From a virus (lineage: Duplodnaviria > Caudoviricetes): a stretch of DNA of 64,000 nt. The stretch lies in IMG/VR virus record IMGVR_UViG_3300025892_000008. One strand, 5' to 3'. Under the pieces are notes generated by a model. The model was not told the origin of the DNA. It saw only the letters and a list, made by a program, of their open reading frames with translations, and did no database searches. A program made the position numbers and the translations under genes. Positions 1-13,985 of the stretch are shown piece after piece; position 1 is the first letter of the stretch, and each line of letters begins with the position of its first letter.

Positions 1-207
1 TACACTAGAGTCTACTATACTAATATAGGCCCCGCTGCAAGGGTTGTGCGTGTGTGCGTGTATACATGTGTACTATACGTATGAGTCTAGGTTACTGTCA
101 ATATCAACACACAATCAACACAATACCAAGAGTATCAAGAGTGGGGATCAATGGTTCAATAAACGGTTATCAAGGGTGGGATCAATGCCATCAAAGAGTG
201 CATTTAA

Positions 208-240
208 TGGTTGACACAGGCTGTCAAAGGTGCTATTATA
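208..240 (+). promoter_or_regulatory. sigma70-type promoter for the tRNA pair
   Basis: TTGACA followed by TGCTATTAT just upstream of tRNA-Arg. Confidence 0.6.
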
Positions 241-256
241 CGTGTACATTAATTAA

Positions 257-333
257 CTGCCCTTAGCTCAGCAGGATAGAGCAACGGTCTTCTAAACCGT
301 AGGTCAGAGGTTCGAATCCTCTAGGGCAGGCCA
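257..333 (+). tRNA. tRNA-Arg(UCU)
   Basis: Cloverleaf: CTGCCCT/AGGGCAG acceptor, anticodon loop CTTCTAA, GGTTCGAATCC T-arm, encoded CCA. Confidence 0.97.
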
Positions 334-337
334 ATGA

Positions 338-422
338 GCCCGCGTGATGGAATTGGTAGACATAACGGACTTAAAATCCGTGGCCATACGGCGTGCCGGT
401 TCGAGTCCGGCCGTGGGTACCA
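338..422 (+). tRNA. tRNA-Leu(UAA)
   Basis: Anticodon loop CTTAAAA, long variable arm, GGTTCGAGTCC, encoded CCA. Confidence 0.97.
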
Positions 423-485
423 TAAACACTCACTGTGCGCAGCAATGCAGCACGGTGGGTGGGCATAAACAAGAGAGGAATACTG

Positions 486-665
486 ATGGCACGTAAAGCA
501 AAAGTCGTAGAAGAACCAAGAGAGACCCGCACCGAAACCATAGAACAATACCTAGCAAGAGGGGGCAAGGTTACTGTATGCCCACCAGGCCAGCGCAGTG
601 AAGATGTAGCGTACAAAACAGGTCCGAAAAGCAGAGGGCGCAAGAAGAAAACTGAAAAGGATTAA
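486..665 (+). CDS. SutA-like small protein (putative RNA polymerase-binding regulator)
   Basis: GAGGA RBS before ATG 486; TIEQYLARGGKVTVCPPG resembles the SutA-family FLxRGGK(I/V) motif. Confidence 0.5.
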   Translation: MARKAKVVEEPRETRTETIEQYLARGGKVTVCPPGQRSEDVAYKTGPKSRGRKKKTEKD

Positions 666-693
666 CTAACACGTGTAGCAGCAATTGCTGTGG

Positions 694-727
694 GCGCATG
701 CGGCTAGGGTTGCATGCGCTTTTTTTA
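694..727 (+). terminator. intrinsic terminator
   Basis: GCGCATGC/GCATGCGC stem followed by T8. Confidence 0.7.
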
Positions 728-842
728 TGGCACATTGCGTGCTGCGCATGCTGCTACAATTGTTAACAAGTTATGTAGATTTTGGTTGCATTTTGGACAA
801 AACTGTTGTATACTTAGTATAACAATTAAGGAGCGAAAACAC

Positions 843-995
843 ATGTACATAAACTTACAAGACTTATACGCAGCGTTTGCTGCTACTCCGCTACAGCAGC
901 GTTATGCATTCTGCATGCAGCACAGCACTTACAACTTAGCGTACAACATAAATTGGCACAACTGTGCTGCACATTGGAAACAGTACGCAGCATAA
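843..995 (+). CDS. early hypothetical protein
   Basis: Promoter and GGAGCG RBS (830-835) before ATG 843. Confidence 0.7.
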   Translation: MYINLQDLYAAFAATPLQQRYAFCMQHSTYNLAYNINWHNCAAHWKQYAA

Positions 996-1121
996 GCACA
1001 ACGTTGCGCAGCACTGTAGTACTGTGTGCTGCGCACAACTGTTAACATGTTATGTTTATTTTGCTTGCATTTTGGACAAACATGTGCTATATTAAGTATA
1101 CAATAACAACACGGAGCGAAC

Positions 1122-1514
1122 ATGAAGAACACGATAAACATTACTACACGTGAACTAAAACACTTGTGCAACTTTTTAACAAACACTATGAACTACAAAG
1201 TAAACTTAGTAAGTGATGAAGACTTTGCATACGATGAAGACGGCGGCTACAACTGTTACGATTGGGTAGCAGCAACGGACGAACTGTGCGCACAAACTGC
1301 TGCTGTACTAGATAGTTACTTTAATAAAAAGGACACAAGTGCTGCTACAGCACTAGCACATGCTATTGATTACAGATACGATGATGATTGTATTAATGAA
1401 GGTATAAGCGAACACTTTTACGATTACTGCAAGCAGCACAACTGTATGCAGTTGTACTACAAGCAGGCAGACGCACACGATTACGACGGAGAGGATGCTG
1501 CGCTGCGTATGTAA
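1122..1514 (+). CDS. early hypothetical acidic protein (proline-free)
   Basis: Own promoter and GGAGCG RBS; no TC/CC on the coding strand. Confidence 0.8.
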   Translation: MKNTINITTRELKHLCNFLTNTMNYKVNLVSDEDFAYDEDGGYNCYDWVAATDELCAQTAAVLDSYFNKKDTSAATALAHAIDYRYDDDCINEGISEHFYDYCKQHNCMQLYYKQADAHDYDGEDAALRM

Positions 1515-1578
1515 AAAACACTTGACAGTTTGGAAAAACTGTGCTACTATGCAAATATAATAACATTATGGAGCGTAC

Positions 1579-1863
1579 ATGTTAAACACAACACAAGTTA
1601 AAGATTTAGTTAAGCAACGTTTTGGCGGAAGTTTAAAACAAGTATACTTAAACAAATGCTATAGTAATAAACAAGAGATAGCAGACAAACGCAACATGGC
1701 TTTTGCTGTAGATGGAGACGTGTACACAAATGTGGACTTAACAGCACTAGCAAAAGAAATAGGATGCAAGCGTATAAAACTACACGCTGCATTTTTAAGA
1801 GGAATGCAAAGTGGAGCATGGTTACGTTTAATACATGTGCATTATGCATGTAAAAATAATTAA
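1579..1863 (+). CDS. early hypothetical protein (proline-free)
   Basis: TTGACA promoter and GGAGCG RBS. Confidence 0.75.
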   Translation: MLNTTQVKDLVKQRFGGSLKQVYLNKCYSNKQEIADKRNMAFAVDGDVYTNVDLTALAKEIGCKRIKLHAAFLRGMQSGAWLRLIHVHYACKNN

Positions 1864-1931
1864 AATAATGCTTGCATTTTGGATAAAATGAAAGTATAAT
1901 GTATATAACAATTAAGCATAAGGAGCGCAAC

Positions 1932-2069
1932 ATGCAAAAACTACTAAACAAAATTACATTTTATTTTTTAAACAGGGCGTTTACACAAATGGAGCAAAGC
2001 AACGATTTGCAAAATGATGATAAAGTTGCGGAGCACATTGAAGATTATTATACGTATTTTGTAAAATAA
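1932..2069 (+). CDS. early 45-aa hypothetical protein (not in ORF track)
   Basis: Promoter and AAGGAGCG RBS; MQKLLNKITFYFLNRAF...YFVK*. Confidence 0.7.
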   Translation: MQKLLNKITFYFLNRAFTQMEQSNDLQNDDKVAEHIEDYYTYFVK

Positions 2070-2136
2070 CGCTTTACATACTAGCACGCATGTGCTAGTA
2101 TGCATTATAAACTAAAACAACAGCGAGGAGCGCAAC

Positions 2137-2337
2137 ATGGGAATGTACAATTTAATTGAAGACAATGTAGAACAGTTTTACAAACTGGCAACAGCAGCAT
2201 GCGAACAGTGTGAGACACGTGAACAACTGTTAAACACTATGCGCAAGCACACTGGGCTGCTGTGCGGAAGCAGCGAAGCGGATGAGGATGCATGGCACGA
2301 AGGACTAAGCGAGCTGTGGCGTGAGCAGTACGTGTAA
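2137..2337 (+). CDS. early hypothetical protein (proline-free)
   Basis: GGAGCG RBS at 2127-2132. Confidence 0.75.
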   Translation: MGMYNLIEDNVEQFYKLATAACEQCETREQLLNTMRKHTGLLCGSSEADEDAWHEGLSELWREQYV

Positions 2338-2428
2338 ATTAATTTAAAAAAAGTGCATTTAGTACTTGACATTTTGGACAAACTGTAGTACTATGTATAT
2401 ATTAACTTAAACAAACGGAGCGTAACAC

Positions 2429-2893
2429 ATGTTAAACACACAAGCAAACAACACTAAAATTAAAACAGTAACTACACGTGATGGGGACATTGCTGTGCAA
2501 TTGGAAATTGATTTAGCACAGCACAACTTGCAAGTTAACGGACGTAAAGTGGAAAGCATTACTATGTATGCGGATGCGGAATGTAGTGGGGACTTAGCAG
2601 TTAACTGGGAAGAGGAAGACGACAGTAACTACGTACACAACAGCAGCATGCTAATGCGTGACACTAGTGACAGTAACAACAACACGGACACAATGGGACA
2701 GTTTTATTGGGACAGTTGTTTTGATGACACACTTGTGCAACTGTTACAAGAAAATGGATTTAGCAAAAGTGCTAGTGAGGACGTATGCGGAAGTGAATGG
2801 GGCATGCAGGATGTGGGACGTGCAAGTTACGACGCTTTTGCAATAGCAACGGAAATACTTGCAGCACACAACATTGCATATGAGGACGCATAA
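2429..2893 (+). CDS. early hypothetical acidic protein (proline-free)
   Basis: TTGACA promoter and GGAGCG RBS at 2417-2422. Confidence 0.8.
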   Translation: MLNTQANNTKIKTVTTRDGDIAVQLEIDLAQHNLQVNGRKVESITMYADAECSGDLAVNWEEEDDSNYVHNSSMLMRDTSDSNNNTDTMGQFYWDSCFDDTLVQLLQENGFSKSASEDVCGSEWGMQDVGRASYDAFAIATEILAAHNIAYEDA

Positions 2894-3106
2894 CAATATA
2901 CGCTGCGTGTGCAGCACATAGTACTACAACTGTGTGCTGCACAACATGCTGCTGCTGCGCAGCGTGTGCATGCAGACCCCGCTGCACGTATTTGTAAAAG
3001 TTGTTCTTTGTGTTCGCAGTAAGCACATTAGTTAAAAAGTACTTGACAAACACATTTAAATGTAGTATACTACAATCAACAATTAAGTATTAACGGAGCG
3101 TTCAAC

Positions 3107-3418
3107 ATGTATTACATATACGATAAGCAGTCAACACGTATTATCAATAAGCCGTCAAAGCCCTATCTACAATGCTGCTACAAGACGATGGCAGCAGCAC
3201 AGGCACAACTAACACGTATGCATAACAAGCACGTGAAGACTAAGGACAGTGCAACTAGCCCACTGTACACTGCTGCAATTGCAGAAGCAGCGTACTACGC
3301 TAGTAACATTGAGAAGCAGGTGACACGTAAGAACATGATGACGGGTAAACAGTATACAGAGAGTGTTAACACTCCAAGTTACATGTCGCCCAGCAGCGAG
3401 AGCTACTGGAGCATGTAG
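3107..3418 (+). CDS. early phage hypothetical protein
   Basis: Promoter and GGAGCG RBS; C-terminal NMMTGK...NTPSYMSPSSESYWSM recalled as a recurrent phage motif. Confidence 0.8.
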   Translation: MYYIYDKQSTRIINKPSKPYLQCCYKTMAAAQAQLTRMHNKHVKTKDSATSPLYTAAIAEAAYYASNIEKQVTRKNMMTGKQYTESVNTPSYMSPSSESYWSM

Positions 3419-3567
3419 ATAACCCAGACCCCGCTGCAGGGGTCAGGTAGGCAGGCTGCGCAGCATGTGCTGTGGCCGAGTTGAGGTAGAATAGGATTCA
3501 ATCAACAGCAGCGTAACATGAAAGGAGAACACTTTTAACGAAGGCAGACTAGTTAAAGGTGGGGAAG

Positions 3568-3600
3568 CAGCAGCATTGTTCAACAGTGCTGCTGTTTTTT
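3568..3600 (+). terminator. intrinsic terminator
   Basis: CAGCAGCATTGT/ACAGTGCTGCTG stem followed by a T-run. Confidence 0.75.
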
Positions 3601-3693
3601 TATCAACACCCCTTCAACAACTGCATGTGCTGCGTGCGGAGGTGGGGAAGCAGCACACAGTTGTAGTACTGCGTGCTGCTAGTGCTGCGTTAA

Positions 3694-4032
3694 TTAACTA
3701 ACGCAATTGTTATTTTCAATTGTTGCTAACAATGCATTATCTTTATGCACGTGTTGCAAGTAACTGTTAAACATATTTTCAACATATACGTTTTTAGTTT
3801 GTGCGCTTATGCGCAAATCATGCTGTAAACGCATTACGCTTTTTGCTAGTTGCTGCATTGTAGTTTGCTGTTGCTTATAATACGGCGGCTTTTTTGCTGC
3901 TTGCTTTGCTGCATTAATAGCACTGTTAACAGCATTGTACTGCTGCATTTGCTGCTGTGTTAATTTTACATTGCTGTTGCGGAATTGCAAGTAGTTAGCA
4001 TGTGTTACTGTAGTGTTTTTTGTTATTTGCAT
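3694..4032 (-). CDS. early hypothetical Gln/Ala/Asn-rich protein
   Basis: Minus-strand copy of the early promoter and GGAGCG RBS (4036-4041). Confidence 0.75.
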   Translation of the reverse strand: MQITKNTTVTHANYLQFRNSNVKLTQQQMQQYNAVNSAINAAKQAAKKPPYYKQQQTTMQQLAKSVMRLQHDLRISAQTKNVYVENMFNSYLQHVHKDNALLATIENNNCVS

Positions 4033-4280
4033 GTACGCTCCTTATGCTTAATTGTTATATGTATAGTAACATAAAAATTTCCAAAATGCAAGCAAATAAA
4101 ACATAACATGTTAACTAATTTTTCAATGCTGCGCTGCTAGTGCTGCACGCTGAGGCCGTCTCGGCCACATGCACGGGGAGGCGCCTTTTTGTTCTTTTGT
4201 TCTCTTTTTGGTAAATGAGGGGTTGACAAATAATTTTAGTGACTGTATACTGTATATAACAATTAGGAAAAGGAGCGAAA

Positions 4281-4568
4281 ATGATACAAGCACTAGAAGA
4301 GTACGTAGCCCAGCAGAACAGTTGGAACAAGATATTCGACAAGACCCACGTGGACATAGACGTGAATAACATGTCGAAACTACAAGCAGACGATCTAATA
4401 CGTAAACTAGATTCAGAAATGAGCCCAGAAAACTTACACTGTGATGGCGAGATAACCCACAGCCAGGCCCAAGACAAGTATGATTACTTCATGGCAGTGT
4501 GGCAGGACTTGCGAAGTGTATACTATAAAAAGCAATGGACTCTTCCACCAGTTTGGGAATTGGCCTAA
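4281..4568 (+). CDS. early hypothetical protein
   Basis: Promoter and GGAGCG RBS; LSPENLxCDGE-like motif. Confidence 0.8.
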   Translation: MIQALEEYVAQQNSWNKIFDKTHVDIDVNNMSKLQADDLIRKLDSEMSPENLHCDGEITHSQAQDKYDYFMAVWQDLRSVYYKKQWTLPPVWELA

Positions 4569-4646
4569 ATTAATTTGCAATTAGGGGTTGACATTGTTAA
4601 CCACTGACTGTATACTGTAAGAACAATGAAACATAAGGAGCGAAAT

Positions 4647-5675
4647 ATGTCAAAGAAACTAGTTAAGTTTAAAGAGAGCGGCTTTTATAATATACGTGGT
4701 AAGGCCACAGATGTAAAAGGTTTAGAGTTTCCGCTTATTGAAGATTGGAAGAAAGGCGCAGACATGGTCGGCTATGTAACAGTAGACGGATCATACCAAG
4801 CAGGCTTTCCTACAAGAAACATCCGAGTCAAATGTGATCAGAATGCTTTTTCGCTGATTGATCCATCCAAGGCGGCAGCCAAGGCAGAAGAAACAGATGA
4901 GCAGATCATCGAGCGTCTTCGTAAGAGATTTGACATCCTTGAAGACATGACACAGGCTACCAAAGAAGGTACAGTGCGAGCAATGATCGTTACAGGCCCT
5001 CCAGGTGTTGGTAAGTCCTTTGGCGTTGAGAAGACCTTGAACAAGGAAGACTTGTTTAATGTAATGGGTCAGCGAAAGCCAAAGTATGAAGTTGTCAAGG
5101 GTGCAATGTCCGCCATAGGCCTCTACTGTAAATTGTATGAGTTTGCCGACAAGGGTAACGTTGTCGTATTTGATGACTGTGACTCGGTACTACTAGATGA
5201 CCTGTCGCTGAACATTTTGAAAGCGGCATTGGACTCTAGCACAAAGAGAACTATCCATTGGAACACAGACAGCTCGAAGTTGAGAGCAGAAGGCGTACCA
5301 GGATCGTTCGAATTCAAAGCAGGTGCGATCTTTATTACGAACATCAAGTTCGAGAACGTACGAAGCAAGAAGTTGCAGGATCACTTAGCGGCACTAGAAA
5401 GCAGATGCCACTATATTGATCTGCAAATGGATACAGAGCGAGAGAAAGTGCTCCGTATCGAACAGATCGTCAAAGATGGAATGTTAGATACTTACGACTT
5501 CCAAAACGGCGAGGCTGAAGAGGTTGTTGGTTTTATCAATGATCAGAAGAAGAAGTTGAGAGAACTATCTCTCAGAACAGTGTTGAAGATTGCTGATCTT
5601 CGTAAGTCATTCCCAGGCAACTGGAAAGAGATGGCTGAAGTCACTGTAATGAAGACAGGACGATATGCCGCTTAG
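4647..5675 (+). CDS. AAA+ family P-loop ATPase
   Basis: Walker A GPPGVGKS, Walker B VVFDDCD, sensor ITN, SRC arginine finger; start after GGAGCG. Confidence 0.85.
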   Translation: MSKKLVKFKESGFYNIRGKATDVKGLEFPLIEDWKKGADMVGYVTVDGSYQAGFPTRNIRVKCDQNAFSLIDPSKAAAKAEETDEQIIERLRKRFDILEDMTQATKEGTVRAMIVTGPPGVGKSFGVEKTLNKEDLFNVMGQRKPKYEVVKGAMSAIGLYCKLYEFADKGNVVVFDDCDSVLLDDLSLNILKAALDSSTKRTIHWNTDSSKLRAEGVPGSFEFKAGAIFITNIKFENVRSKKLQDHLAALESRCHYIDLQMDTEREKVLRIEQIVKDGMLDTYDFQNGEAEEVVGFINDQKKKLRELSLRTVLKIADLRKSFPGNWKEMAEVTVMKTGRYAA

Positions 5676-5778
5676 GTATATTTTGGACATATTGGGGGTT
5701 GACTTTCGAGTCAACTCTCAGTATAATATAAAGACGCTGGGGACACAAATGGACTCCGGCAATATCAAAGGAGATAAT

Positions 5779-6066
5779 ATGAAACGTTTTAATCCAAAAA
5801 CAAAAACTTTTAAGGTGTTTTCTGCACTTTATAACGGCGATGCTCTAACTTCAGCGAAAGCGAAGAAAATGGGTGTTGGTAACCTTGGTGCGGAAGTATC
5901 AAGAATCAAGCAGAATGGTTATGCTGTATATACAAGTTCACGTAAGGCTGGCAACGGCGTAAGAGTGACTGAGTATGTAATGGGAAAACCATCACGTGAG
6001 ATCGTTGCATTAGGTTATGCGGCTAAATCAAAAGGTTTGACACTAGATACTATTACTAGCATCTAA
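5779..6066 (+). CDS. small basic protein, possibly winged-HTH DNA-binding
   Basis: AAGGAG RBS; LTSAKAKKMGVGNLGAEVSRIKQNGYAV pattern. Confidence 0.55.
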   Translation: MKRFNPKTKTFKVFSALYNGDALTSAKAKKMGVGNLGAEVSRIKQNGYAVYTSSRKAGNGVRVTEYVMGKPSREIVALGYAAKSKGLTLDTITSI

Positions 6067-6084
6067 GTAGTCACAAAAGATACA

Positions 6085-6126
6085 AAAACTGGCGTCATCC
6101 GATTCGCTCCCGGAGCCAGACTTTTT
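6085..6126 (+). ncRNA. 3'-UTR hairpin with anti-GGAGCG loop (copy 1)
   Basis: CTGGC..TCCG-ATTCGCTCC-CGGA-GCCAG; apical 18 nt identical to copy 2. Confidence 0.6.
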
Positions 6127-6129
6127 GGG

Positions 6130-6158
6130 TAGGCACTCTTTGTAGTGCCTATTTTTTT
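6130..6158 (+). terminator. intrinsic terminator
   Basis: TAGGCACT/AGTGCCTA stem followed by T7. Confidence 0.85.
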
Positions 6159-6251
6159 GACTAAAATAATCCAAAATAAATTGCATTTAGGGGTTGACTT
6201 CTTGAACAATAGAAGGTATAATGTATATAACAATTAGGAAAAGGAGCGAAT

Positions 6252-6413
6252 ATGTACCAAGATATAGATGTAAGAGACCAAGCAATTGAAATGGTAGAAG
6301 ACGGTCAAGTCGATGCTAAGGCAATGCTAATTATGGCTCTGAAGTATATGAGCACAGACGACGTGGCTGATATGCTAGATACGAACGAATTATCAGAAAG
6401 ATTTGGTAATTAG
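6252..6413 (+). CDS. early 53-aa hypothetical protein (not in ORF track)
   Basis: Promoter and AAGGAGCGAAT RBS; MYQDIDVRDQAIEMVEDG... Confidence 0.75.
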   Translation: MYQDIDVRDQAIEMVEDGQVDAKAMLIMALKYMSTDDVADMLDTNELSERFGN

Positions 6414-6485
6414 GGGTTGACATATGATGCAGATGATTGTATTATATAATAACAAACTTAGACAATTAACAGAAAGAGGTCAATT

Positions 6486-7565
6486 ATGAGCGACATGAGT
6501 ATAAGGCAGGTTGGGCCTAAATCAGCCAAGACATCGATTGCATTCGCAATTAAAATGAAACGCCCTACATTTTTATGGGGCCCTCCAGGCATTGGTAAAT
6601 CAGATCTAGTTCAGCAGATTGGTGCTGATACTGATCGTGAGGTTATTGATGTTAGGTTGGCACTATGGGAGCCGACAGACATTAAAGGTATTCCATACTT
6701 CGATTCCAATGCAGGAACGATGACATGGGCACCGCCGGCAGAACTTCCTACAGACCCTGATAGCAAGGCTATCTTGTTCTTAGACGAATTAAACTCTGCT
6801 CCACCAGCCGTGCAAGCCGCGGCCTATCAGTTAATCCTTAACCGTAAGGTAGGAACTTATGTATTGCCTAAAGGCGTTGACATTGTCGCCGCAGGTAATA
6901 GAGATGGTGATAAGGGTGTCACATACAGGATGCCGGCTCCTTTGGCGAACAGATTTGTTCACTTGGAGATGAAGGTAGACTTTGATGATTGGCAGGACTG
7001 GGCTACCTTGCACGGTATCAATCCTGAGGTAGTTGGTTATATTGGTTATGCCAAGCAGGACTTATATGACTATGATCCAAAGAGTCCTTCGAAGTCATTT
7101 GCAACTCCTCGTTCTTGGAGTTTCGTGAGTGACTTGGTTAGCGATACTGAGATTGATACAGAGTCGTTGACTAATTTGGTATCAGGCGCAATTGGCGATG
7201 GGTTGGCTGTGAAGTTTATGGCCCATAGAAAGATTGCTTCTAAACTTCCTAAGCCAGATGATATCCTTGACGGTAAGGTTAAGGATCTTGAAATTAAGGA
7301 AGTATCAGCGATGTATTCCTTAACCGTTGGACTCTGCTACGAGTTGAAAGACAGAGCAGACAAGAAGGTTAGCGATTGGGATAAGATGGCTGACAGGTTC
7401 TTTGAGTATATGATGAAGAACTTTCCTACAGAACTTGTCGTGATGGGAGCCAAGACAGCTCTTACAAATTACGACTTGCCCTTAGACGCTTCTAAAATGA
7501 AATCCTTTGATGAGTTTCATAAGAGGTTTGGCAAATATGTTATGAATGCTATGGAGACAGATTAA
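6486..7565 (+). CDS. MoxR-family AAA+ ATPase
   Basis: GPPGIGKS, LFLDELN, AAGN, LANRF motifs. Confidence 0.9.
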   Translation: MSDMSIRQVGPKSAKTSIAFAIKMKRPTFLWGPPGIGKSDLVQQIGADTDREVIDVRLALWEPTDIKGIPYFDSNAGTMTWAPPAELPTDPDSKAILFLDELNSAPPAVQAAAYQLILNRKVGTYVLPKGVDIVAAGNRDGDKGVTYRMPAPLANRFVHLEMKVDFDDWQDWATLHGINPEVVGYIGYAKQDLYDYDPKSPSKSFATPRSWSFVSDLVSDTEIDTESLTNLVSGAIGDGLAVKFMAHRKIASKLPKPDDILDGKVKDLEIKEVSAMYSLTVGLCYELKDRADKKVSDWDKMADRFFEYMMKNFPTELVVMGAKTALTNYDLPLDASKMKSFDEFHKRFGKYVMNAMETD

Positions 7566-7640
7566 TTGACCTACTCCATAGGTATCATAGGGTGCAAGGG
7601 GTCTAAGCCTTGCACCCACCCTAATTTAATTCAAAATAGT

Positions 7641-7698
7641 GGTTGACACTTTGGATAAAAGAAGGTATAATGTATATAACAATTAGGAAATGGAGCGA
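7641..7698 (+). repeat. representative early promoter-RBS repeat (near-identical at 10662-10719; related copies at about 20 sites from 785 to 13982)
   Basis: GGTTGACAnTTTGGATAAAAGAAGGTATAATGTATATAACAATTAGGAAAnGGAGCGA. Confidence 0.9.
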
Positions 7699-7703
7699 AA
7701 CAT

Positions 7704-8939
7704 ATGAATGCAATTGAAGAAAAACTTACAACCGCAAGGGTTGGATTACTTCTAAAAACTCCGTTCTTTGGCAATATGGCTACAAGAATGAAGATCATCA
7801 ATGCTGACGATTGGTGTCAGACTGCCGCAACTGACGGTAGAAACTTCTATTACAATACAGAATTCGTTAAGAAGTTATCCACAAAGAAATTAGAGTTCCT
7901 CTTTGCACACGAAATAGGTCATTGTGTATTTGATCATTTTGGTAGAGCAGGTAGCAGGAACAGACAACTCTGCAATATCTCACAGGACTATGCAATCAAC
8001 CAGATCCTCGCAGATGAGAAGATCGGTGAAGTGATTGACGAAGTTCCTATTTGCTTGGACTCACAATACAGAGGCTTGGCTTGGGAAGAGATCTACGACA
8101 AGTTATATGAGAAGGCAGACATCCAAGAGATTACATTAGATCAACTAATGGAGGGACTGGGTGAAACACTTGATGAGCATATTAACGGTGACGGTGCTCA
8201 AGGTCAGAAAGGACAAGACAAGGAGCAAGATAGCGATACAAGAGGTAAGGCTCCTGTTCTAACTAAAGAAGAAAAGCAGAAGATCAAAGATGAGATTAAA
8301 GAGGCTATGATCCAGAGTGCGGCGGCGGCTGGTGCAGGTAAGACTCCAGGTGCTATCCAGAGACTGATCAAAGACTTGACAGAAGCAAAGATGAACTGGA
8401 GAGAGATTCTTAGAATGAATATCCAGAGCATTATTAAGAATGATTATTCATTTACTATTCCAAGTCGTAAGGGTTGGCACACAGGAGCAATCCTCCCAGG
8501 TGTTAAGAACGATGAGACAATTGATATTGCTATTGCGGTAGACATGAGTGGTAGTATTGGGATGGACGATGCCAAAGTGTTCTTTTCAGAGATCAAAGGT
8601 ATTATGGACCAGTATGAAGACTTCAGCATTAAGGTATGGTGCTTTGATACAGAGGTCTACAATTATGCAGAGTTCAGTCAGGACAATGTAGAAGAATTGT
8701 TAGACTACGAGCCCAAAGGTGGCGGTGGTACAGAGTTCGTTGTGAACTGGGACTTTATGAAAGAGAATGCAATTGAGCCTAAGAAATTTGTGATGTTCAC
8801 TGATGGTTATCCTTGGGGTAGTTGGGGTGATGAGAACTATTGCGATACCCTGTTCATAGTGAAGGGTAATGAACGAGCAGAAGCGCCGTTCGGACAGACG
8901 GTAATCTATGAGAAAGACGCGGCCCTACATGGAGAATAA
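7704..8939 (+). CDS. metallopeptidase-like plus VWA domain protein (DUF2201 type), MoxR partner
   Basis: HEIGH zinc motif, DMSGS MIDAS motif, GGGT, FTDG. Confidence 0.88.
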   Translation: MNAIEEKLTTARVGLLLKTPFFGNMATRMKIINADDWCQTAATDGRNFYYNTEFVKKLSTKKLEFLFAHEIGHCVFDHFGRAGSRNRQLCNISQDYAINQILADEKIGEVIDEVPICLDSQYRGLAWEEIYDKLYEKADIQEITLDQLMEGLGETLDEHINGDGAQGQKGQDKEQDSDTRGKAPVLTKEEKQKIKDEIKEAMIQSAAAAGAGKTPGAIQRLIKDLTEAKMNWREILRMNIQSIIKNDYSFTIPSRKGWHTGAILPGVKNDETIDIAIAVDMSGSIGMDDAKVFFSEIKGIMDQYEDFSIKVWCFDTEVYNYAEFSQDNVEELLDYEPKGGGGTEFVVNWDFMKENAIEPKKFVMFTDGYPWGSWGDENYCDTLFIVKGNERAEAPFGQTVIYEKDAALHGE

Positions 8940-9177
8940 TGAACTGAGAGATATGATAGGATCCCCATTCAAGGTGGGGTCACCCTGTGTATGGACCACC
9001 CACAACTTCCAGTGGATAGGGACCGTGGTTAAGGTATGCAAGAGCAGGGTAAGGGTTAAGCCTCTACCGGGCTCAACGAGATACACCCGTTATGAAGGAT
9101 TGCCATTCCCGGAGAAGGTAATACAACTAGATTCGATGCCAAAATCAGCACTATTCATGGCAATAAAAAGTGGTTGA
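8929..9177 (+). CDS. hypothetical protein (SH3-like beta fold possible)
   Basis: ORF overlapping the stop of the VWA gene. Confidence 0.6.
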   Translation: MENNELRDMIGSPFKVGSPCVWTTHNFQWIGTVVKVCKSRVRVKPLPGSTRYTRYEGLPFPEKVIQLDSMPKSALFMAIKSG

Positions 9178-9230
9178 CATTTTGGATAAAAGAAGGTATA
9201 ATAATAACATAATAACAATAAGGAGCGAGT

Positions 9231-9923
9231 ATGACAATAGAATATAGCATAGCACACCGAGATCCTGTGACCCTTATAGGATACAATGGCGAAGGTGCAA
9301 TCAAATACAATGTGACAGGCTACAAGAGAGAGTTCTTGGAAGTCAAGGTAAGACGAAATAGATCTTACAATGATGACTCTTGGTCTTGGGAAATTGAATT
9401 AGATGTTCCTAGGTATGGTAGAGATAAAGATCAGGAGCCTTGCAATATCAAGGTAGCCAAGTATATGACATCAGCAATGGCTGAGGCTATCAAAGAGATG
9501 GAGAGCATCCAGGATCAGATCCCTACTATGGATAAAGAGTATGAGAGAGGCCAGAAGGAAAGGGAAGAGAAGCGAGTAAGAGAAGCGGCCGAGAGACAGG
9601 CTAAGATTGACGCTGACAAACCCGTAGGGCATAAACTAGCAAAGACTATCTGTGATGAGATGGTTAAGCAGGCTAGAGAGACTGAGCAGGATAGCAAGGA
9701 GATCGTGTTCCAGACTAGAGGCGATCATAGAGAAGAGAAGATGCGATGCGTCTACACTATGAGTGGGTTGACTCTGTTTAACATGGGTTGGAATAGAGTA
9801 AGTCGTAAGGATGCGGTAAGGAAACTTGCAGACGCTTGGTTGGCTAGTGTTGATACAGGCGATGTGAAGGATAGCATACCTGACGCTAGATTGGCAGGAT
9901 TTATGATGGGCGGTAAGAACTAG
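9231..9923 (+). CDS. early hypothetical protein
   Basis: Promoter and GGAGCG RBS at 9222-9227. Confidence 0.8.
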   Translation: MTIEYSIAHRDPVTLIGYNGEGAIKYNVTGYKREFLEVKVRRNRSYNDDSWSWEIELDVPRYGRDKDQEPCNIKVAKYMTSAMAEAIKEMESIQDQIPTMDKEYERGQKEREEKRVREAAERQAKIDADKPVGHKLAKTICDEMVKQARETEQDSKEIVFQTRGDHREEKMRCVYTMSGLTLFNMGWNRVSRKDAVRKLADAWLASVDTGDVKDSIPDARLAGFMMGGKN

Positions 9924-10030
9924 GGGCAAATACCCCGCTGCAAAGAGCCCCTAATTTGGATATTAGGGGTTGACAGATTGGATTTATGATAGTATTATAT
10001 ACATATAATGAAAATTAAGGAGCGAACAAT

Positions 10031-10309
10031 ATGAAAGCATTTGAACAGGCAATTGAAGCAATTAATAAGATCGACACCACAGAAGAGATAAGAGACCTCT
10101 TTGATGCGATCAGGCTTCGTCAAACATTCCTAGGTAACAAGACCATTAGGGCTCTTGCAACTGGTGACAATGTATCCTTTAATGGTAAGAATGGTTACAC
10201 CAAGGGAACAGTCAAAAAAATCAACAGAAAATATGTATTGGTAGACACTGCTCGAGGACAGTGGAGAGTGCCTGCTACAATGCTAACCAAGGAGGACTCA
10301 TATGCTTAA
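10031..10309 (+). CDS. early hypothetical protein (SH3-like C-terminus)
   Basis: Promoter and GGAGCG RBS; GTVKKINRKYVLV..WRVPATML. Confidence 0.8.
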   Translation: MKAFEQAIEAINKIDTTEEIRDLFDAIRLRQTFLGNKTIRALATGDNVSFNGKNGYTKGTVKKINRKYVLVDTARGQWRVPATMLTKEDSYA

Positions 10310-10445
10310 GGCTATCGTATTTGGTATCCTGGGTGCAGGTGCGATGTATCTGTATTTAGGACACGGCGACATCCCTGCATTCATTGACATGCTCAAAGGT
10401 ATTGTCAATCAAGGTGCAGGCATAGTAGAAGAAGCGACCCAGTAG
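10302..10445 (+). CDS. 47-aa membrane peptide
   Basis: GGAGG RBS; hydrophobic N-terminus. Confidence 0.6.
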   Translation: MLKAIVFGILGAGAMYLYLGHGDIPAFIDMLKGIVNQGAGIVEEATQ

Positions 10446-10667
10446 ATGATCTACAAGGGCTTCCGATACGAGCAGGATATCCAAGAGGAAGAGGATAACC
10501 GCAAGATATTCCACGAAGTAATTGACCCGCAAGGCAATAATGTAAGGTGGGGATTGCTTCCGGCAAGTTGGCACGATATAAGTCCGTATCGTTCCGCAAC
10601 TGTAGAGGAATTTGAGGCGGCTGTTAATGAGGTTATTTTTTATAATTTTGTTGCAGAAAATGGTTGA
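10446..10667 (+). CDS. hypothetical protein
   Basis: ORF abutting the upstream stop codon. Confidence 0.65.
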   Translation: MIYKGFRYEQDIQEEEDNRKIFHEVIDPQGNNVRWGLLPASWHDISPYRSATVEEFEAAVNEVIFYNFVAENG

Positions 10668-10721
10668 CAGTTTGGATAAAAGAAGGTATAATGTATATAA
10701 CAATTAGGAAAAGGAGCGATT

Positions 10722-11054
10722 ATGTATAAACTAGATAGCAATGATGCAATGATAAACGGCACTAGCCTGCAAGGACACATTGAGGCAAGTTATGATGACT
10801 TGGTTAAGGCGTTTGGTGCTCCGGCTTTTGACAGCGTGGTAGACGGCGACAGCGACAAGGTGCACACTGAGTGGGCACTTGAATTCCAAAATGAAGAAGG
10901 CGATTACATTACCGCTACAATTTATGACTGGAAAGAATATAACGCCTACACTAGCAGGACGGGCAAGTATAGGTGGCACATAGGTGGCAATAGTTATGAA
11001 GCGGTTGAGGCCGTGTATGACTATGCTAATCTAAAGGAGGTTGCTGATGCCTAA
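10722..11054 (+). CDS. early phage hypothetical protein
   Basis: Promoter and GGAGCG RBS; GTSLQG..DKV.TEW..ATIYDWK motif. Confidence 0.8.
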   Translation: MYKLDSNDAMINGTSLQGHIEASYDDLVKAFGAPAFDSVVDGDSDKVHTEWALEFQNEEGDYITATIYDWKEYNAYTSRTGKYRWHIGGNSYEAVEAVYDYANLKEVADA

Positions 11055-11643
11055 TTGGTGCGATAATACAATTTCAATTACGGGGCCAGCAGAGAAGTTG
11101 AGCCCCATGTATACCAAGTTGGTAGCAGAAGAGGAAGAAGGTTTGTTAAGCATCCTCTATCCTCAACCAGCAGACATCTTTAAGGGTGATCTGGGAGACA
11201 AGGAACGAAAGCAATGCGCCAAGGACGGTGTTCCTAACTGGTACGATTGGAACAGTTCTAACTGGGGTACCAAGTGGGATGTATCAGAAGGTAACTGGCA
11301 ATATGAAGATGCTGGTGACGGTCAAGCAATCCTAACAGGCAACTTTGAAAGTGCTTGGGCTCCGCCAACAGGTGTATATGAACACTGCCAGACAGCACAC
11401 GACGATCTATACATTGAAGCAATGTATTATGAACCCGGCTGTGCATTTGCAGGCATGTGGACAAGTGATGGTGGTGATGATCATTACAGCCTAGAAGGCG
11501 ACAAGGCCGCATTGGAGAACGAACTTCCAGAAGAACTGAATGATGCTTTTGGAATTACGGAAAACATTGAAGAGGAACCAGAAGAGTTGACTGAATGGTT
11601 GAAAGAAGGTTCCGAAGCAAAGAAGGAGTTGGTCGGTGGATAA
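11047..11643 (+). CDS. DUF1281/YubB-like ferredoxin-like domain protein
   Basis: MPNWCDN start, NWGTKWD, F.SAWAPP, YEPGCAFAG. Confidence 0.75.
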   Translation: MPNWCDNTISITGPAEKLSPMYTKLVAEEEEGLLSILYPQPADIFKGDLGDKERKQCAKDGVPNWYDWNSSNWGTKWDVSEGNWQYEDAGDGQAILTGNFESAWAPPTGVYEHCQTAHDDLYIEAMYYEPGCAFAGMWTSDGGDDHYSLEGDKAALENELPEELNDAFGITENIEEEPEELTEWLKEGSEAKKELVGG

Positions 11644-11842
11644 TACTGTTCCAGCAAAGAGAAGATTCACTTACACACTTTCAGTAGAGTGTGCGAGCGA
11701 AGGGAATGCTGATTTGGATGCAGTTGAAAACATCCTAGATCTACATTTTCAGGATTTGGTAATGGACGATACATTCGTGAACGAATTAGACGAAAGTCAA
11801 TCCGTTACCATTCAAGTAGTACCCAATTTTGGAAAGAAATAA
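11636..11842 (+). CDS. hypothetical protein
   Basis: ORF overlapping the upstream stop codon. Confidence 0.65.
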   Translation: MDNTVPAKRRFTYTLSVECASEGNADLDAVENILDLHFQDLVMDDTFVNELDESQSVTIQVVPNFGKK

Positions 11843-11937
11843 TGGTTGACATCCAATCCAAAATATGGTATAATAACATTGAGCCTGTAGGAACAGGTTC
11901 ATTAATTAACTAAGAAAGGCTAATAGAGGTAAACATT

Positions 11938-12255
11938 ATGGCAACAGAAAAAAAGTTCTCAGTAGTAGGTGTATCAACCCTGAACGGGAAAACAAAGATT
12001 AGATTCGCAAACGATAGTATGAGGATCAAGATCTTACTTAAGAATGGTCATGAAGACGTAGATATGATCAATCTTGATAGGGAGATGTATAAGTGGGAAA
12101 TCGCTGAACATCTAAAGGCAGTTAATTTTGCGAAAGACAATAGCGCCACAAAGAATGCTATTGACTATATCGCTAAAAAGAATCCAGCGCCGGAAGGCAT
12201 GGATGCTCCTGCAGAAACTAACAAAGAAGAAGCAGTTGAGCCAGTGGTAGCATAA
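11938..12255 (+). CDS. phage hypothetical protein
   Basis: Own sigma70-type promoter, AGAGG RBS (not GGAGCG). Confidence 0.8.
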   Translation: MATEKKFSVVGVSTLNGKTKIRFANDSMRIKILLKNGHEDVDMINLDREMYKWEIAEHLKAVNFAKDNSATKNAIDYIAKKNPAPEGMDAPAETNKEEAVEPVVA

Positions 12256-12284
12256 TCCGATTCGCTCCCGGAAGCGACCACTAG
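12242..12284 (+). ncRNA. 3'-UTR hairpin with anti-GGAGCG loop (copy 2)
   Basis: AGTGGTAGC..TCCG-ATTCGCTCC-CGGA..GCGACCACT. Confidence 0.6.
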
Positions 12285-12289
12285 TACCT

Positions 12290-12339
12290 GAGGAAGGCTA
12301 GCATGCCCTCAAATATTATGCTAGTCTTCCTCTTTTTTT
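12290..12339 (+). terminator. intrinsic terminator
   Basis: GAGGAAGGCTAGCAT/ATGCTAGTCTTCCTC stem followed by T7. Confidence 0.85.
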
Positions 12340-12402
12340 GGTTGACATTTGGATAAAAGGGTGCTATATTAAGAGTATAATAAGAAACAGAAAGAGAGCG
12401 TT

Positions 12403-12567
12403 ATGTTAGAATTAATTGGTTTTTGTGCAGTTGCTTACTTGGTGTTCAAGTTTGCGCCTGCGATATTAGAAGTTGGATTTAAGTTTGCGGTTATATGCTT
12501 AGGTCTAGTTGCATTTTTCTTCATACTGAGTTTTGTATGGGGTACAATTTTAATCGCGATTAACTAG
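12403..12567 (+). CDS. 54-aa two-helix membrane peptide
   Basis: Promoter and GAGAGCG RBS variant; hydrophobic throughout. Confidence 0.65.
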   Translation: MLELIGFCAVAYLVFKFAPAILEVGFKFAVICLGLVAFFFILSFVWGTILIAIN

Positions 12568-12576
12568 GAGGACTAT

Positions 12577-12756
12577 ATGGGAGAGCTATTAGAAATCATT
12601 GAAGACCTTAAGAGCCTGGATGCAAACGACGACCCAATCGAAAGAAAGATTGAATTGGGCGAGTTGATTACGAAATACCAGGATCGTTTTGACACAGCCG
12701 AGCGTGATATATCGCGTCAAATGGAGCTCGATTTAGTTCAAACAATCTGCAAATAA
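12577..12756 (+). CDS. 59-aa acidic hypothetical protein
   Basis: GGAGG RBS. Confidence 0.65.
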   Translation: MGELLEIIEDLKSLDANDDPIERKIELGELITKYQDRFDTAERDISRQMELDLVQTICK

Positions 12757-12817
12757 TGGTTGACAAATTGGATAAAATCCTGTATACTGTAAGTATAAAC
12801 AATAAAGGAGCGAGCAT

Positions 12818-13231
12818 ATGAAATTAGTAATCCACACACAGTTCAAAGAAAACTACGGCGCCCACACATGGGACGGCGAAGGCGAGTGTCCACAGTATTG
12901 GAAGTTCAAAGGCGGAGAGACCTTCGTGCTCCCAGGAGTAGACACGGAACTGTTGGTGCCCGCTCTGCGAGACCTAATCGAGTACAAGGACGACGGGTCC
13001 GAAGAATACATTCTCAACGCAGAGGTTGTAGAGGATGACGCTGTGATATGCGAAGAGTGGGAAACTCCGTGGACCATATATGCAGAGGACATGGGCTTCT
13101 ATGCCAGCCGTTATGTGAAGGCAGAAGACTATTGGCAACCTGGCTACAAGGGCAAGGCCCAGAGCTACAAGATGCTGCCTAAGGGTGAGCGTGAAGCGTG
13201 GAGCGAGGAATACATCAAGGAGGCAGCGTAA
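12818..13231 (+). CDS. early phage hypothetical protein
   Basis: Promoter and GGAGCG RBS; TQFKENYGAH..YWKFKGG motif. Confidence 0.8.
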   Translation: MKLVIHTQFKENYGAHTWDGEGECPQYWKFKGGETFVLPGVDTELLVPALRDLIEYKDDGSEEYILNAEVVEDDAVICEEWETPWTIYAEDMGFYASRYVKAEDYWQPGYKGKAQSYKMLPKGEREAWSEEYIKEAA

Positions 13232-13473
13232 TGAAGTTCCTGCTTCTGAGTGTTATGCTAGCCGGGCAACCCCTATACGACACAGAGGCCACCTGCACCA
13301 AGGCAGCAACGGTAATCAACGACAGTTATCCAGAGCAGAAGAGCATATGCATACCTGCGCCCACTGTGTATTTCGAGCAAAACCAGGAAGATAAAGCGTT
13401 CAATAACTTCTATGATTTGATCATAAAACTGAGAAATTTACCTCCTAAAGAGGTTGACATTTTGGAAGAATGA
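13231..13473 (+). CDS. secreted or lipoprotein-like hypothetical protein
   Basis: Signal-like MKFLLLSVMLAG start; TAATG overlap with upstream stop. Confidence 0.6.
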   Translation: MKFLLLSVMLAGQPLYDTEATCTKAATVINDSYPEQKSICIPAPTVYFEQNQEDKAFNNFYDLIIKLRNLPPKEVDILEE

Positions 13474-13513
13474 TAGTATTATATACTTACTAACTTAAAC
13501 AAAAGGAGCGAAT

Positions 13514-13903
13514 ATGTTTGTAGAAAAAACCGTAACAGCGACACCAACATTTGACACAGTAAAGGTCCAAATGATCCACACAGAAGCAACCAGTGCTGCT
13601 AAGGCTGCTGTTGCTAAGATGCTGGACGAATGGACAGAAAGCACAGGCGGCAACCAGTATGGTGAGCCTATGTATTGTGGATTTGCTTGGGTAGATGTTA
13701 AAGAGCGAAGCAATAGTAAACTGGGCAAGGCTCTACAGAGCATAGGTTTCCGTAAGAGCTACCAAAGTGGTGTTCTTCAGTTATGGGATCCTGCACAGCA
13801 TAGAGGGCAGAGCATGGATTGCAAAGAAGTGGGTGCCAGTGCTTATGCTGCTGTATGGCGTGAATATGGCGTAAAAATGCACATGGGTTCGCGTGCAGAC
13901 TAA
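13514..13903 (+). CDS. early hypothetical protein
   Basis: Promoter and GGAGCGAAT RBS; CGFAWV motif. Confidence 0.8.
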   Translation: MFVEKTVTATPTFDTVKVQMIHTEATSAAKAAVAKMLDEWTESTGGNQYGEPMYCGFAWVDVKERSNSKLGKALQSIGFRKSYQSGVLQLWDPAQHRGQSMDCKEVGASAYAAVWREYGVKMHMGSRAD

Positions 13904-13985
13904 GGCTACATTTTGGATATTAGGGGTTGACAAACAGCCCCTAATGTCATATATTAGTAGTATGAAACAAACAAAAGGAGCGATT

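Follow-up and report, generated by a model that had tools for sequence, protein, structure and literature searches.

A set of small early genes in the 64-kb window (the whole stretch of phage DNA analysed here) excludes the dinucleotides TC and CC, jointly 5'-YC-3', from its sense strand. In the YC-free zone at 625-2976 (+), 3 TC/CC are found in 2,352 nt, against about 176 (about 74 CC and 102 TC) expected from base composition. The ban is a property of particular early gene families in a marine jumbo-phage clade that is distantly related to PA5oct. It is tied to the sense strand, and it has been kept by selection across deep divergence. We consider it rather probable that the first-expressed genes are in this way made cis-immune to a factor that recognises 5'-YC-3' on the single-stranded sense strand, as RNA or as DNA.

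The YC-free zone and the unit of the ban

The only TC/CC within 626-2976 (+) are TC at 887, CC at 888 and TC at 910. The count is 0 across 911-2976 (2,066 nt) and also across 625-886, and the recount thus bears out the gap described in the earlier note. When the whole window was scanned for all 16 dinucleotides in 500-nt sliding steps, no second comparable zone was flagged. Since GA (128) and GG (87) are plentiful on the same + strand, the exclusion is strand-specific, and its original assignment to the coding strand is upheld.

Six ORFs lie in the zone, all on the + strand. The first, g50 (843-995; 50 aa), follows a putative sigma-70-type promoter (786-814, TTGCAT-17-TATACT, a consensus match only) and holds all three YC of the zone, in a Thr-Pro codon pair and a TTC codon; its homologue in L005 retains the same three. 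A YC-free hairpin of the GCAGCAC...GTGCTGC type at 1003-1032 (+), with more copies at 2911-2940 and 3650-3679, may serve as a terminator or 3' stabiliser. The next product, g130 (1122-1514), is an acidic orphan protein of 130 aa with a pI of 4.4, encoded behind a putative promoter at 1065-1093 (+; TTGCAT-17-TATATT); its homologues at 70-88% identity are as free of YC as the gene itself. It is followed by g94 (1579-1863), a basic 94-aa orphan protein with a putative promoter at 1522-1550 (+; TTGACA-17-TACTAT) and a homologue in L001 that has 0 YC at 30% identity, by g45 (1932-2069; 45 aa), with a putative promoter at 1872-1900 (+; TTGCAT-17-TATAAT), and by g66 (2137-2337), an acidic orphan protein of 66 aa whose homologues at 48-91% identity have 0 YC. 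The last, g154 (2429-2893), is an acidic orphan protein of 154 aa (pI 4.1) behind a putative promoter at 2366-2394 (+; TTGACA-17-TACTAT), and its 440 metagenomic homologues (protein clusters) are practically without proline. From g130 to g154, every ORF contains 0 YC. A terminator-like hairpin, TGCAG-ACCCCG-CTGCA (2971-2986, +), holds the first YC after the zone in its loop, and its motif GGCCCCGCTG recurs at unit boundaries in relatives. Searches of the zone proteins against PHROGs and Pfam gave nothing meaningful, AlphaFold models of g154 (pLDDT 77) and g130 (pLDDT 72) had no PDB fold match at E <= 0.001, and none of the zone products was recognisable as Alc, MotA or a Rho-related protein.

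The effect on the proteins is drastic. Proline accounts for 1 of the 539 codons of the six ORFs, serine is encoded by AGY only, ATC, GCC, GTC, ACC and CTC are absent, and there is one TTC. Both the single proline and the TTC belong to g50, so that the five ORFs inside 912-2976 are indeed proline-free, with AGY-only serine, TTT for phenylalanine and no ATC, in agreement with the earlier reading. Shuffling the codon order of the zone ORFs created 33 junction YC (minimum 21), against 0 observed, and recoding the zone proteins with the codon usage of their neighbours created 68. The 499 non-coding nucleotides of 912-2976 are YC-free as well. The ban therefore acts at the level of nucleotides, not of codons.

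Base composition is otherwise little changed. C makes up 17.6% of the zone and 17.3% of the neighbouring genes, with 4.3% versus 4.4% for CT and 7.0% versus 6.5% for TT, and the C lost from YC turns up as AC and GC. The C/G ratio rises from 0.68 in the neighbours to 0.80 in the zone, and A+G is 58% in both. In four-fold codon families, purine-ending codons reach 75% in the zone and 46% in the neighbours (51% after dropping the banned codons, the shift being partly forced by the ban).

Within each unit the ban sets in near the -10 element, continues through untranslated regions and codon junctions, and ends with the stop codon. There are 0 YC in 963 nt of 5'UTR of YC-free units, and 0.19 per 100 nt in their coding sequences, compared to about 7 per 100 nt in ordinary DNA. 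Between the stop codon and the next -35 element the ban is partially relaxed (1.7 YC per 100 nt). Single-gene islands in L033 and L067 lack a terminator and allow read-through into YC-rich genes. Promoter cores contain 0 YC for YC-free genes and 1.29 per promoter for normal genes. A DNA-level ban starting at the -35 element was nevertheless dropped, as read-through in multi-gene zones explains the YC-free promoter cores, and as YC is found in two -35 hexamers and, in 4 copies, in the promoter spacer of the separate unit at 13986. Dropped as well was TTGCATTTTGGACAAA as a promoter class special to YC-free genes, because the TTTTGGA spacer also drives YC-normal genes family-wide.

The earlier note took the neighbouring early genes to be normal. 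This holds for the g103, g95 and g76 families, but not for two other genes. Read along its own sense strand, the inverted gene g112 (3694-4032, -) is YC-poor, with 4 YC where about 30 would be expected. Its promoter, at 4036-4115, repeats those of the zone in inverted orientation, and the homologue of the gene lies on the + strand inside the L001 zone. GA/GG depletion in this gene was not retained as a top-strand DNA rule, since the family is GA/GG-poor in both orientations. The second exception, g67 (13986-14189, +), is a separate YC-free unit for a 67-aa two-helix membrane protein, within a YC-free run at 13948-14194.

These observations bear on evasion of defences that act on double-stranded DNA, either by restriction-site avoidance in the first-entering DNA or by a single-orientation bias against Type III or BREX-like systems. 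The ban does remove all palindromes with GA, TC, GG or CC (GATC, GAATTC, CCWGG), and it leaves most asymmetric sites in a single orientation. However, double-strand properties are symmetric, in conflict with the many GA and GG on the YC-free strand, and GCATGC-type palindromes abound. The ban tracks gene orientation, both in the inverted g112 and in the native coordinates of G002, and it stops at stop codons. A Type III system would be expected to impose one orientation regardless of gene direction, whereas the ban flips with the inverted gene, and a T5-like first-step-transfer zone should show a symmetric ban, which is not the case. We regard an origin in such defences as very unlikely.

Conservation in the phage family

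In 988 kb of family DNA, 16 comparable dinucleotide-pair sets were compared, and runs of at least 300 nt were found for sense-strand YC only. There are 24 such runs, the longest of 2,066 nt, while the other 15 sets do not exceed 263 nt. All islands of at least 300 nt are on the early-gene strand, and in G001 and G002, which have one island per contig, the island ORFs are on the YC-free strand in native coordinates.

The YC-free state belongs to gene families. The g130, g94, g66 and g154 families have zero YC in every relative, and the neighbouring g103, g95 and g76 families have normal YC in every relative. Across 188 homologous proteins, 17 prolines were counted in 26,971 residues. In five orthologue pairs that differ by 71-132 substitutions each, there are 0 YC, where random placement would create 7-21. 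This argues for selection and not mutational decay. Some families are graded: g103 has 14 YC here and 27-41 in its homologues, and g67 has 0 here, 5 in L001 and about 15 in L002. Such counts fit a dose-dependent cost of YC.

The earlier note had listed extreme C>T erosion of the non-transcribed strand, by UV-type damage or a deaminase and in the absence of selection, among its explanations. The type of damage would match, as UV and APOBEC-type signatures consist of C-to-T changes at YC with a bias toward the non-transcribed strand. Yet there is no loss of C and no corresponding gain of YT, AC and GC rise instead, and dipyrimidines abound on the template strand. The ORFs, with their promoters and Shine-Dalgarno sites, are intact, and adjoining genes with the same promoters are normal. 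Orthologues stay at zero YC down to 30% identity, family by family. With C unchanged, no excess of TT or CT and orthologues at zero, the ban is not mutational decay, and we reject erosion as highly improbable.

The composition would be odd for a metagenomic contig, which could raise the suspicion of a sequencing, base-calling or assembly artefact limited to this one. The stretch, or part of it, is however present in 20 rows from at least 13 marine metagenome studies (2014-2025), and such recurrence of near-identical DNA excludes an artefact for practical purposes. In addition, 16 runs contain 92-97% of its sampled words, the ORFs are intact and have 440 homologous protein clusters, and diverged relatives in IMG/VR, ENA and JGI share the trait.

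The trait is not universal in the clade. G004, a complete relative of 364 kb, has no YC-free run above 127 nt and thus no island. No zone was found in 100 kb of PA5oct including its 39-kb terminal repeat, no DNA relatives were found among GenBank phages, and a peptide-pattern search of IMG/VR for relatives of g154 and g130 confirmed none. In this contig the zone begins 0.6 kb from the start, and L004 begins inside a zone. In L001, L005, G001 and G002 it lies within the contig, in the case of G001 at 33.5 kb from the start. In metatranscriptome contigs the region has even coverage in two runs, probably from DNA carry-over, and patchy coverage in two others. These contigs gave no sign of transcript ends or of C-to-U differences.

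Candidate readers of YC

The earlier note had also proposed escape from a YC-reading host weapon directed against single-stranded DNA or RNA. This class of explanation is the one we favour, and we add the termination factor Rho as a known factor with matching specificity. Selection would purge 5'-YC-3' from the sense strand of the first-expressed transcription units, leaving the reader no target on the mRNA as it is made, or on the non-template DNA strand when displaced. The zone genes encode small, mostly acidic orphan proteins and lie behind putative strong promoters of sigma-70 type. To judge by promoters and position, the zone genes would be immediate-early. If they act ahead of any phage countermeasure, they must be immune in cis. 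One of their products could then disarm the reader in trans, after which the ordinary YC-containing early genes would become expressible. The trans-acting inhibitor among the zone products, like the identity of the reader, is something that we infer.

Rho evasion is the single most likely named mechanism, although we propose it tentatively, at odds equal to those of the undescribed enzyme discussed below. Rho has six primary RNA-binding clefts that take up one 5'-YC dinucleotide apiece, and to our knowledge it is the only factor with exactly this specificity. In T4, Rho limits delayed-early expression. Binding of 5'-YC by the clefts of the primary binding site is described in PMC12360218, where the specificity is credited to Bogden 1999 and to Skordalakes and Berger 2003. 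Avoidance of Rho moulds the composition of coding strands and the choice of codons and amino acids, and it forms a barrier to phage genes (PMC13323073). The sense RNA of the zone is depleted of precisely the ligand of the primary binding site, 3 versus about 176, and YC stands alone in this among the 16 sets. The unit of the ban is also suitable, since it ends at the end of the gene and YC is tolerated in spacers, which agrees with a factor that, like Rho, reads 5' to 3' and is concerned only with the RNA upstream of the gene's end.

Other observations fit Rho poorly. Rho binds many YC cooperatively, so that removing the last few should be near-useless, yet most genes are at exactly zero and all proline has been sacrificed. 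C is undiminished, C/G is higher in the zone than in the neighbours, and the purine content is no higher. Ribosomes should shield translated ORFs. Finally, since the complete relative G004 has no island, the trait is not an obligatory response to a universal host factor.

The other half of the favoured class is an undescribed enzyme for which each YC in single-stranded sense-strand nucleic acid would be a separate target. Candidates are a nuclease, a cytosine deaminase acting together with uracil excision, and an ADP-ribosyltransferase, and the enzyme could belong to a host defence or be the phage's own host-shutoff weapon; the YC-free genes would be invisible to it and would include its inhibitor. 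Independent hits at each site would explain selection down to exact zero, strong enough to outweigh proline. A lineage-specific trait, with one island per contig in G001 and G002 and none in G004, is more easily understood with a sporadic agent than with a universal one. The small acidic early proteins (pI 4.1-4.4) resemble DNA-mimic inhibitors, if by resemblance only. Attack at dinucleotide level has precedents in CmdT, DddA and APOBEC: CmdT reportedly ADP-ribosylates GA in mRNA, and DddA and APOBEC enzymes favour TC or CC. We know of no YC-specific enzyme in bacteria, and none was identified here or in the literature searched.

Not every such enzyme would do. Codons in which an edit would be silent (ATC, GCC, GTC, TTC) are banned too, so that the ban cannot be explained as protection of the coding content against C-to-U editing, and a mutagenic deaminase should leave an excess of YT and a deficit of C, neither of which is present. 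For an endoribonuclease, the tolerated read-through into YC-rich genes is awkward, and a cut in the downstream read-through RNA would still open the gene to 3' exonucleases. It is possible, though we would not bet on it, that marine bacteria or the phage own an enzyme attacking every single-stranded 5'-YC-3', with YC-free genes serving as a "self" mark and providing inhibitors.

A different proposal of the earlier note places the obstacle in the template. A DpdA-like enzyme would insert 7-deazaguanine at G-purine, the modification would block host RNA polymerase, and the template of the first genes would be kept free of GA and GG. The banned words are indeed the complements of GA and GG, and a ban that covers what is transcribed as far as the stop codon is as compatible with a template block as with an RNA reader. 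The relatives G002 and G004 carry a DpdA-like/T-fold/GT/folE cluster adjoining polB (64-91% amino acid identity between the two), and the DpdA-like protein has an Atlas score of 0.94 to a viral TGT-like cluster; PF01702 and CAjan DpdA, used as queries for DpdA, gave no match. DpdA is known to target GA and GGC in CAjan and GA in iggy, and about 97% of sites carry the modification (PMC7544227, PMC10484667). The longest motif-free run (GA/GGC-free) on a template strand of CAjan is nevertheless 133 nt, and that in iggy (GA-free) is 289 nt, at the record end, with no strand-specific zone. G004 shares the cluster of G002, yet it has no run above 127 nt, whereas G002 has cluster and island. CC is banned in all contexts and not as GCC alone. 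The early -35 element TTGACA and the common spacer TTTTGGA put GA/GG on the other strand and evidently work, and YC is plentiful in most early genes that have the same promoters. RNA polymerases, moreover, read 7-deaza and glucosyl-hmC templates. The absence of zones from CAjan and iggy, and the cluster without an island in G004, weaken the proposal, which we now regard as unlikely.

Comparison with known systems and meaning

Among known systems, Rho avoidance ("hidden code" or purine bias; Dierksheide et al. 2026, PMC13323073) is similar in that a sense-strand constraint reaches codon and amino-acid choice, and the word banned from the zone is the exact ligand of the Rho cleft. The published effect, however, is a statistical bias across the genome, in C excess and T-richness over stretches of more than 150 nt, whereas the present one affects a few genes, bans one dinucleotide class from them absolutely and leaves their C content unchanged. 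Avoidance of restriction sites or orientations (EcoP15I in a single orientation, T7) also purges words from early phage DNA to escape a host factor, and it too involves small acidic early proteins behind strong promoters. It concerns sites of 5-6 nt, and not a one-strand dinucleotide class that follows gene orientation and ends at stop codons.

In T4, Alc acts on C-containing DNA while hmC DNA is immune, and Rho sets the split between immediate-early and delayed-early genes. The window resembles T4 in its putative sigma-70 early promoters, which suggest a T4-like programme of the kind where termination separates the first genes from the rest, but T4 marks self by base modification and without dinucleotide-free coding. 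DpdA systems are similar in that the complements of the banned words overlap with known motifs and that relatives here have a DpdA-like/folE cluster; the reference phages CAjan and iggy have no motif-free template strands. APOBEC3-type footprints, with depletion of TC/CC in viruses, affect the same dinucleotide class and are strand-linked. They are mild and come with a matching gain of TT/CT, while the ban described here is absolute, with no gain of YT and no loss of C.

An absolute strand-specific dinucleotide ban is a constraint far beyond codon bias or restriction-site avoidance. It strips proline from several protein families and is held by selection in an abundant and widespread clade of ocean phages. 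On balance it points to a factor that would read YC on the sense strand within minutes of the start of infection. Should this factor be Rho, the zone would be the clearest natural case of genes hidden from the terminator, would provide a sequence rule for Rho-proof expression cassettes, and would open a route to the immediate-early genes of uncultured phages and to possible anti-Rho proteins among their products. Otherwise, the ban would point to an enzyme or defence system not described so far, with the inhibitors adjoining. The YC-free signature can be searched for in any genome, and an enzyme that attacks every single-stranded YC would represent a new kind of nucleic-acid immunity and counter-immunity that is recognisable in the bare sequence.

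Exclusion of TC and CC from early genes

The window covers the first 64 kb of a contig that measures about 266 kb in all. The contig is from a jumbo myophage, a distant relative of Pseudomonas phage PA5oct (TerL 53% identical), with no DNA relatives among GenBank phages. At 200-14,500 (+), about 20 small genes have near-consensus sigma-70 promoters (TTGACA-17-TATAAT) and share the Shine-Dalgarno sequence GGAGCG. An extended promoter form, TTGACATTTTGGA(C/T)AAA...TGnTATAAT, is common among the early promoters of the window (200-14000) and of the family loci, and serves genes without the dinucleotides TC and CC (YC) and ordinary genes alike. The YC-free zone (625-2976, +) lies directly 3' of two tRNA genes and one small basic gene. 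Most of its six ORFs (g50, g130, g94, g45, g66 and g154) have their own promoter, hairpins free of YC are present, and the 3' boundary of the zone is in the loop of a hairpin that resembles a terminator, TGCAG-ACCCCG-CTGCA (2971-2986). The zone proteins are mostly acidic orphans (pI 4.1-4.4), for which no Pfam or PHROG family was found; AlphaFold models of g154 and g130 gave no fold match. The gene at 435-665 (+), just upstream of the zone, has a normal YC content and encodes a basic protein (76 aa, pI 10.4) whose match to the SutA RNA-polymerase-binding domain is below threshold (PF20661, E 2e-5, 24 bits vs a cut-off of 29). Its homologue in L005, a locus of diverged DNA, gives the same faint match.

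The original observation is confirmed and strengthened. The earlier note had described 2 kb without YC, and in a recount of the + strand of 625-2976, TC or CC starts only at 887, 888 and 910, with none in the 2,066 nt of 911-2976. The base composition of the zone (A 833, T 578, G 524, C 416) predicts about 74 CC and 102 TC. Since GA (128) and GG (87) occur on the same strand as the missing dinucleotides, the exclusion is indeed strand-specific, as had been claimed. A sliding scan of all 16 dinucleotides found no comparable zone elsewhere in the 64-kb window. The codon restrictions described before (no proline, AGY serine, TTT phenylalanine, no ATC) hold in the codon count: TCN serine, ATC, GCC, GTC, ACC and CTC are all absent from the six ORFs, and the two exceptions among the 539 codons, a single TTC and a single proline, are in g50, the first small ORF. 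The exclusion acts at the nucleotide level. Shuffling the codon order within five genes creates 33 junction YC (minimum 21 in 2,000 trials) vs none observed, re-encoding the five proteins with the codon usage of the neighbours gives 68, and the non-coding part of 912-2976 (499 bases) contains none. In the codon usage of 912-2976, NAC exceeds NAU (Asn, Tyr, His and Asp summed) 91:49 vs 117:147 in the neighbours, GGA instead of GGT is the main glycine codon, and AGA is nearly absent despite a tRNA-Arg(TCT) gene just upstream.

The transcribed unit as the constrained object

The gene at 3694-4032 (-), family g112, is an inverted member of the set. An inverted copy of the zone promoters serves as its promoter, and in the diverged locus L001 the homologue is within the zone, in + orientation. 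On its own sense strand the gene has 4 YC vs about 30 expected, and in the relatives all islands of at least 300 nt are on the early-gene strand. Therefore, the ban is tied to the direction of transcription, and not to genome strand, injection polarity or replication. The exceptions are driven by amino acids, such as the proline of KPxYYKQQ, which is conserved among g112 proteins.

Counts by region, taken over eight zones, delimit the unit further. YC is absent from 963 nt of 5'UTR and rare in coding sequence (0.19 per 100 nt). From -35 to +1 there are 4 YC in 1,118 nt, all within -35 hexamers. The spacers from a stop codon to the next -35 hexamer have 1.7 per 100 nt, and ordinary DNA about 7. 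Thus, the constrained object is the transcribed unit through the stop codon. The single-gene islands of loci L033 and L067 start 10-32 nt before the -35 hexamer and stop within the spacer of the promoter that follows. No terminator intervenes, and read-through into genes rich in YC is therefore tolerated. A short conserved element, GGCCCCGCTG, which folds into a small hairpin whose loop is C-rich, is found at the ends of transcription units (window 27-44, 2974-2991 and 3426-3443; L001 10741-10752 and 12848-12856; L052 20343-20352) and supplies the first YC 3' of several YC-free zones. The element may act as a terminator or be bound by a protein.

A separate YC-free unit, 11 kb from the main zone (13986-14189, +), encodes a protein of 67 aa with two predicted membrane helices. 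Its promoter spacer has 4 YC, but the stretch from -12 to seven bases beyond the stop codon has none. Its homologues have 5 (L001) and about 15 YC (L002), so membership in the YC-free class changes between lineages. The neighbour family g103 is a graded case, with 14 YC in the window vs 27-41 in homologues.

Conservation in relatives and selection

The trait is widespread. Of the sampled words of 600-3100, 92-97% are present in 16 sequencing runs, and in all, 20 rows have the region whole or in part, drawn from 13 studies of marine metagenomes (2014-2025). The homologous protein clusters number 440 for g154 and 68 for g130, some from Tara. Among the matches listed, 188 homologous proteins contain 17 prolines among 26,971 residues, and almost all of these prolines belong to marginal matches. 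The same YC-free zones are present in the diverged DNA of L001-L005. In tblastn searches of all loci, g130, g94, g66 and g154 have no YC in any homologue, down to 30-48% amino acid identity; in the neighbour families g103, g95 and g76, YC is at a normal level in all relatives. Islands of at least 300 nt occur in about 20 of 80 IMG/VR loci, collected through the neighbouring ATPase. A dinucleotide comparison across 988 kb of family DNA leaves YC as the sole outlier: among sixteen comparable word sets only YC has runs of at least 300 nt (24 runs), and the longest run of any other set is 263 nt. The whole relative contigs G001 and G002 have one island each, and in native orientation the ORFs are on the strand that is free of YC. 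The YC-free gene families are absent from G004, a complete 364-kb relative, in which runs without YC do not exceed 127 nt. In PA5oct, one small gene (gp099, 264906-265148; L006 39906-40148) is covered by a 243-nt run without TC or CC, where about 17 YC are expected. This gene may represent a lone instance of the trait in a phage that is in culture and has RNA-seq data.

The alignments point to selection: orthologue pairs are 71-132 substitutions apart and all five have no YC, and the same number and kind of substitutions placed randomly gives 7-21 YC per gene (minimum 2-9). In other-strain contigs checked by hand, all six new C in the zone follow a purine, which gives weak support to selection. 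The C>T erosion proposed in the earlier note is rejected, as C makes up 17.6% of the zone vs 17.3% of the neighbours, CT and TT are not raised, and C sits after purines (observed/expected 1.61 for AC, 1.88 for GC). The YC-free state is thus kept by selection, and not by mutation. Erosion, restriction-site avoidance and artefact are ruled out by the wide occurrence, the conservation on the sense strand, the signs of selection and the transcription-unit boundaries; the minor explanations (erosion, double-strand defences and artefact) are very improbable even jointly. Codons in which C-to-U change is silent (ATC, GCC, GTC, TTC) are banned too, and therefore guarding the coding message from editing is not the reason.

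Possible readers of the sense strand

A property of double-stranded DNA cannot be asymmetric, and therefore the reader must see one strand. The strand seen could be the mRNA, the non-template strand once displaced, or the template while the polymerase reads it. A block by template-strand modification, suggested before, has been weakened. Here the phage would have its own 7-deazaguanine modification on the template strand, and the overlap between the complements of the banned words and the DpdA motifs (GA and GGC in CAjan, GA in iggy; PMC7544227, PMC10484667) is real. However, CAjan and iggy lack genes with motif-free template strands, and G004 has the DpdA-like/T-fold/GT/folE cluster of G002 (64-91% identity) but no island. 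This conserved cluster (L101 1-12000, corresponding to G004 160-172 kb; G002 37-44 kb) comprises polB, a clamp-like gene, a 510-aa DpdA/TGT-like protein, a T-fold protein, a 368-aa protein and folE. The 510-aa protein was recognised by Atlas features only and has no match with PF01702 or a CAjan DpdA query. We consider such modification improbable as the cause of the ban. In CAjan itself, the + strand of the gp50 region (L088 38900-39500) has TC at about one sixth of expectation; the TC-poor strand is the template of a minus-strand gene, a polarity opposite to the ban studied here.

The proposed escape from a weapon that reads YC in single-stranded DNA or RNA is favoured. A single-strand reader of sense-strand YC, be it Rho or another enzyme, is the probable explanation. 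Each of the six primary binding clefts of Rho takes one 5'-YC dinucleotide, precisely what is banned (PMC12360218). Rho avoidance shapes coding-strand composition and the choice of codons and amino acids where polymerase outruns ribosomes, and is a barrier to phage genes (PMC13323073, 2026). Because Rho travels from 5' to 3', RNA matters only as far as the gene end, which fits a ban that ends at the stop codon. Against Rho, binding is cooperative, so that the last few YC should be irrelevant, C is not lowered in the zone, and G004 lacks any island. Rho as the reader is only a tentative identification. Another YC-specific enzyme, acting site by site, would best account for the exact zero and for the lineage-specific distribution, but there is no known candidate, and we regard it as equally doubtful. 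There is a modest chance that the explanation lies outside those considered.

Full-text searches of the literature turned up no earlier account of a set of phage early genes that lack a dinucleotide class on one strand only. Among published ideas, Rho-driven purine bias and the avoidance of restriction sites come nearest, and the YC ban is an extreme case of such avoidance, restricted to certain genes and to the sense strand. Whichever reader is assumed, the ban would amount to immunity in cis, since the first genes would have to work before any phage protein is made. The product of one of the YC-free genes would then presumably neutralise the reader.
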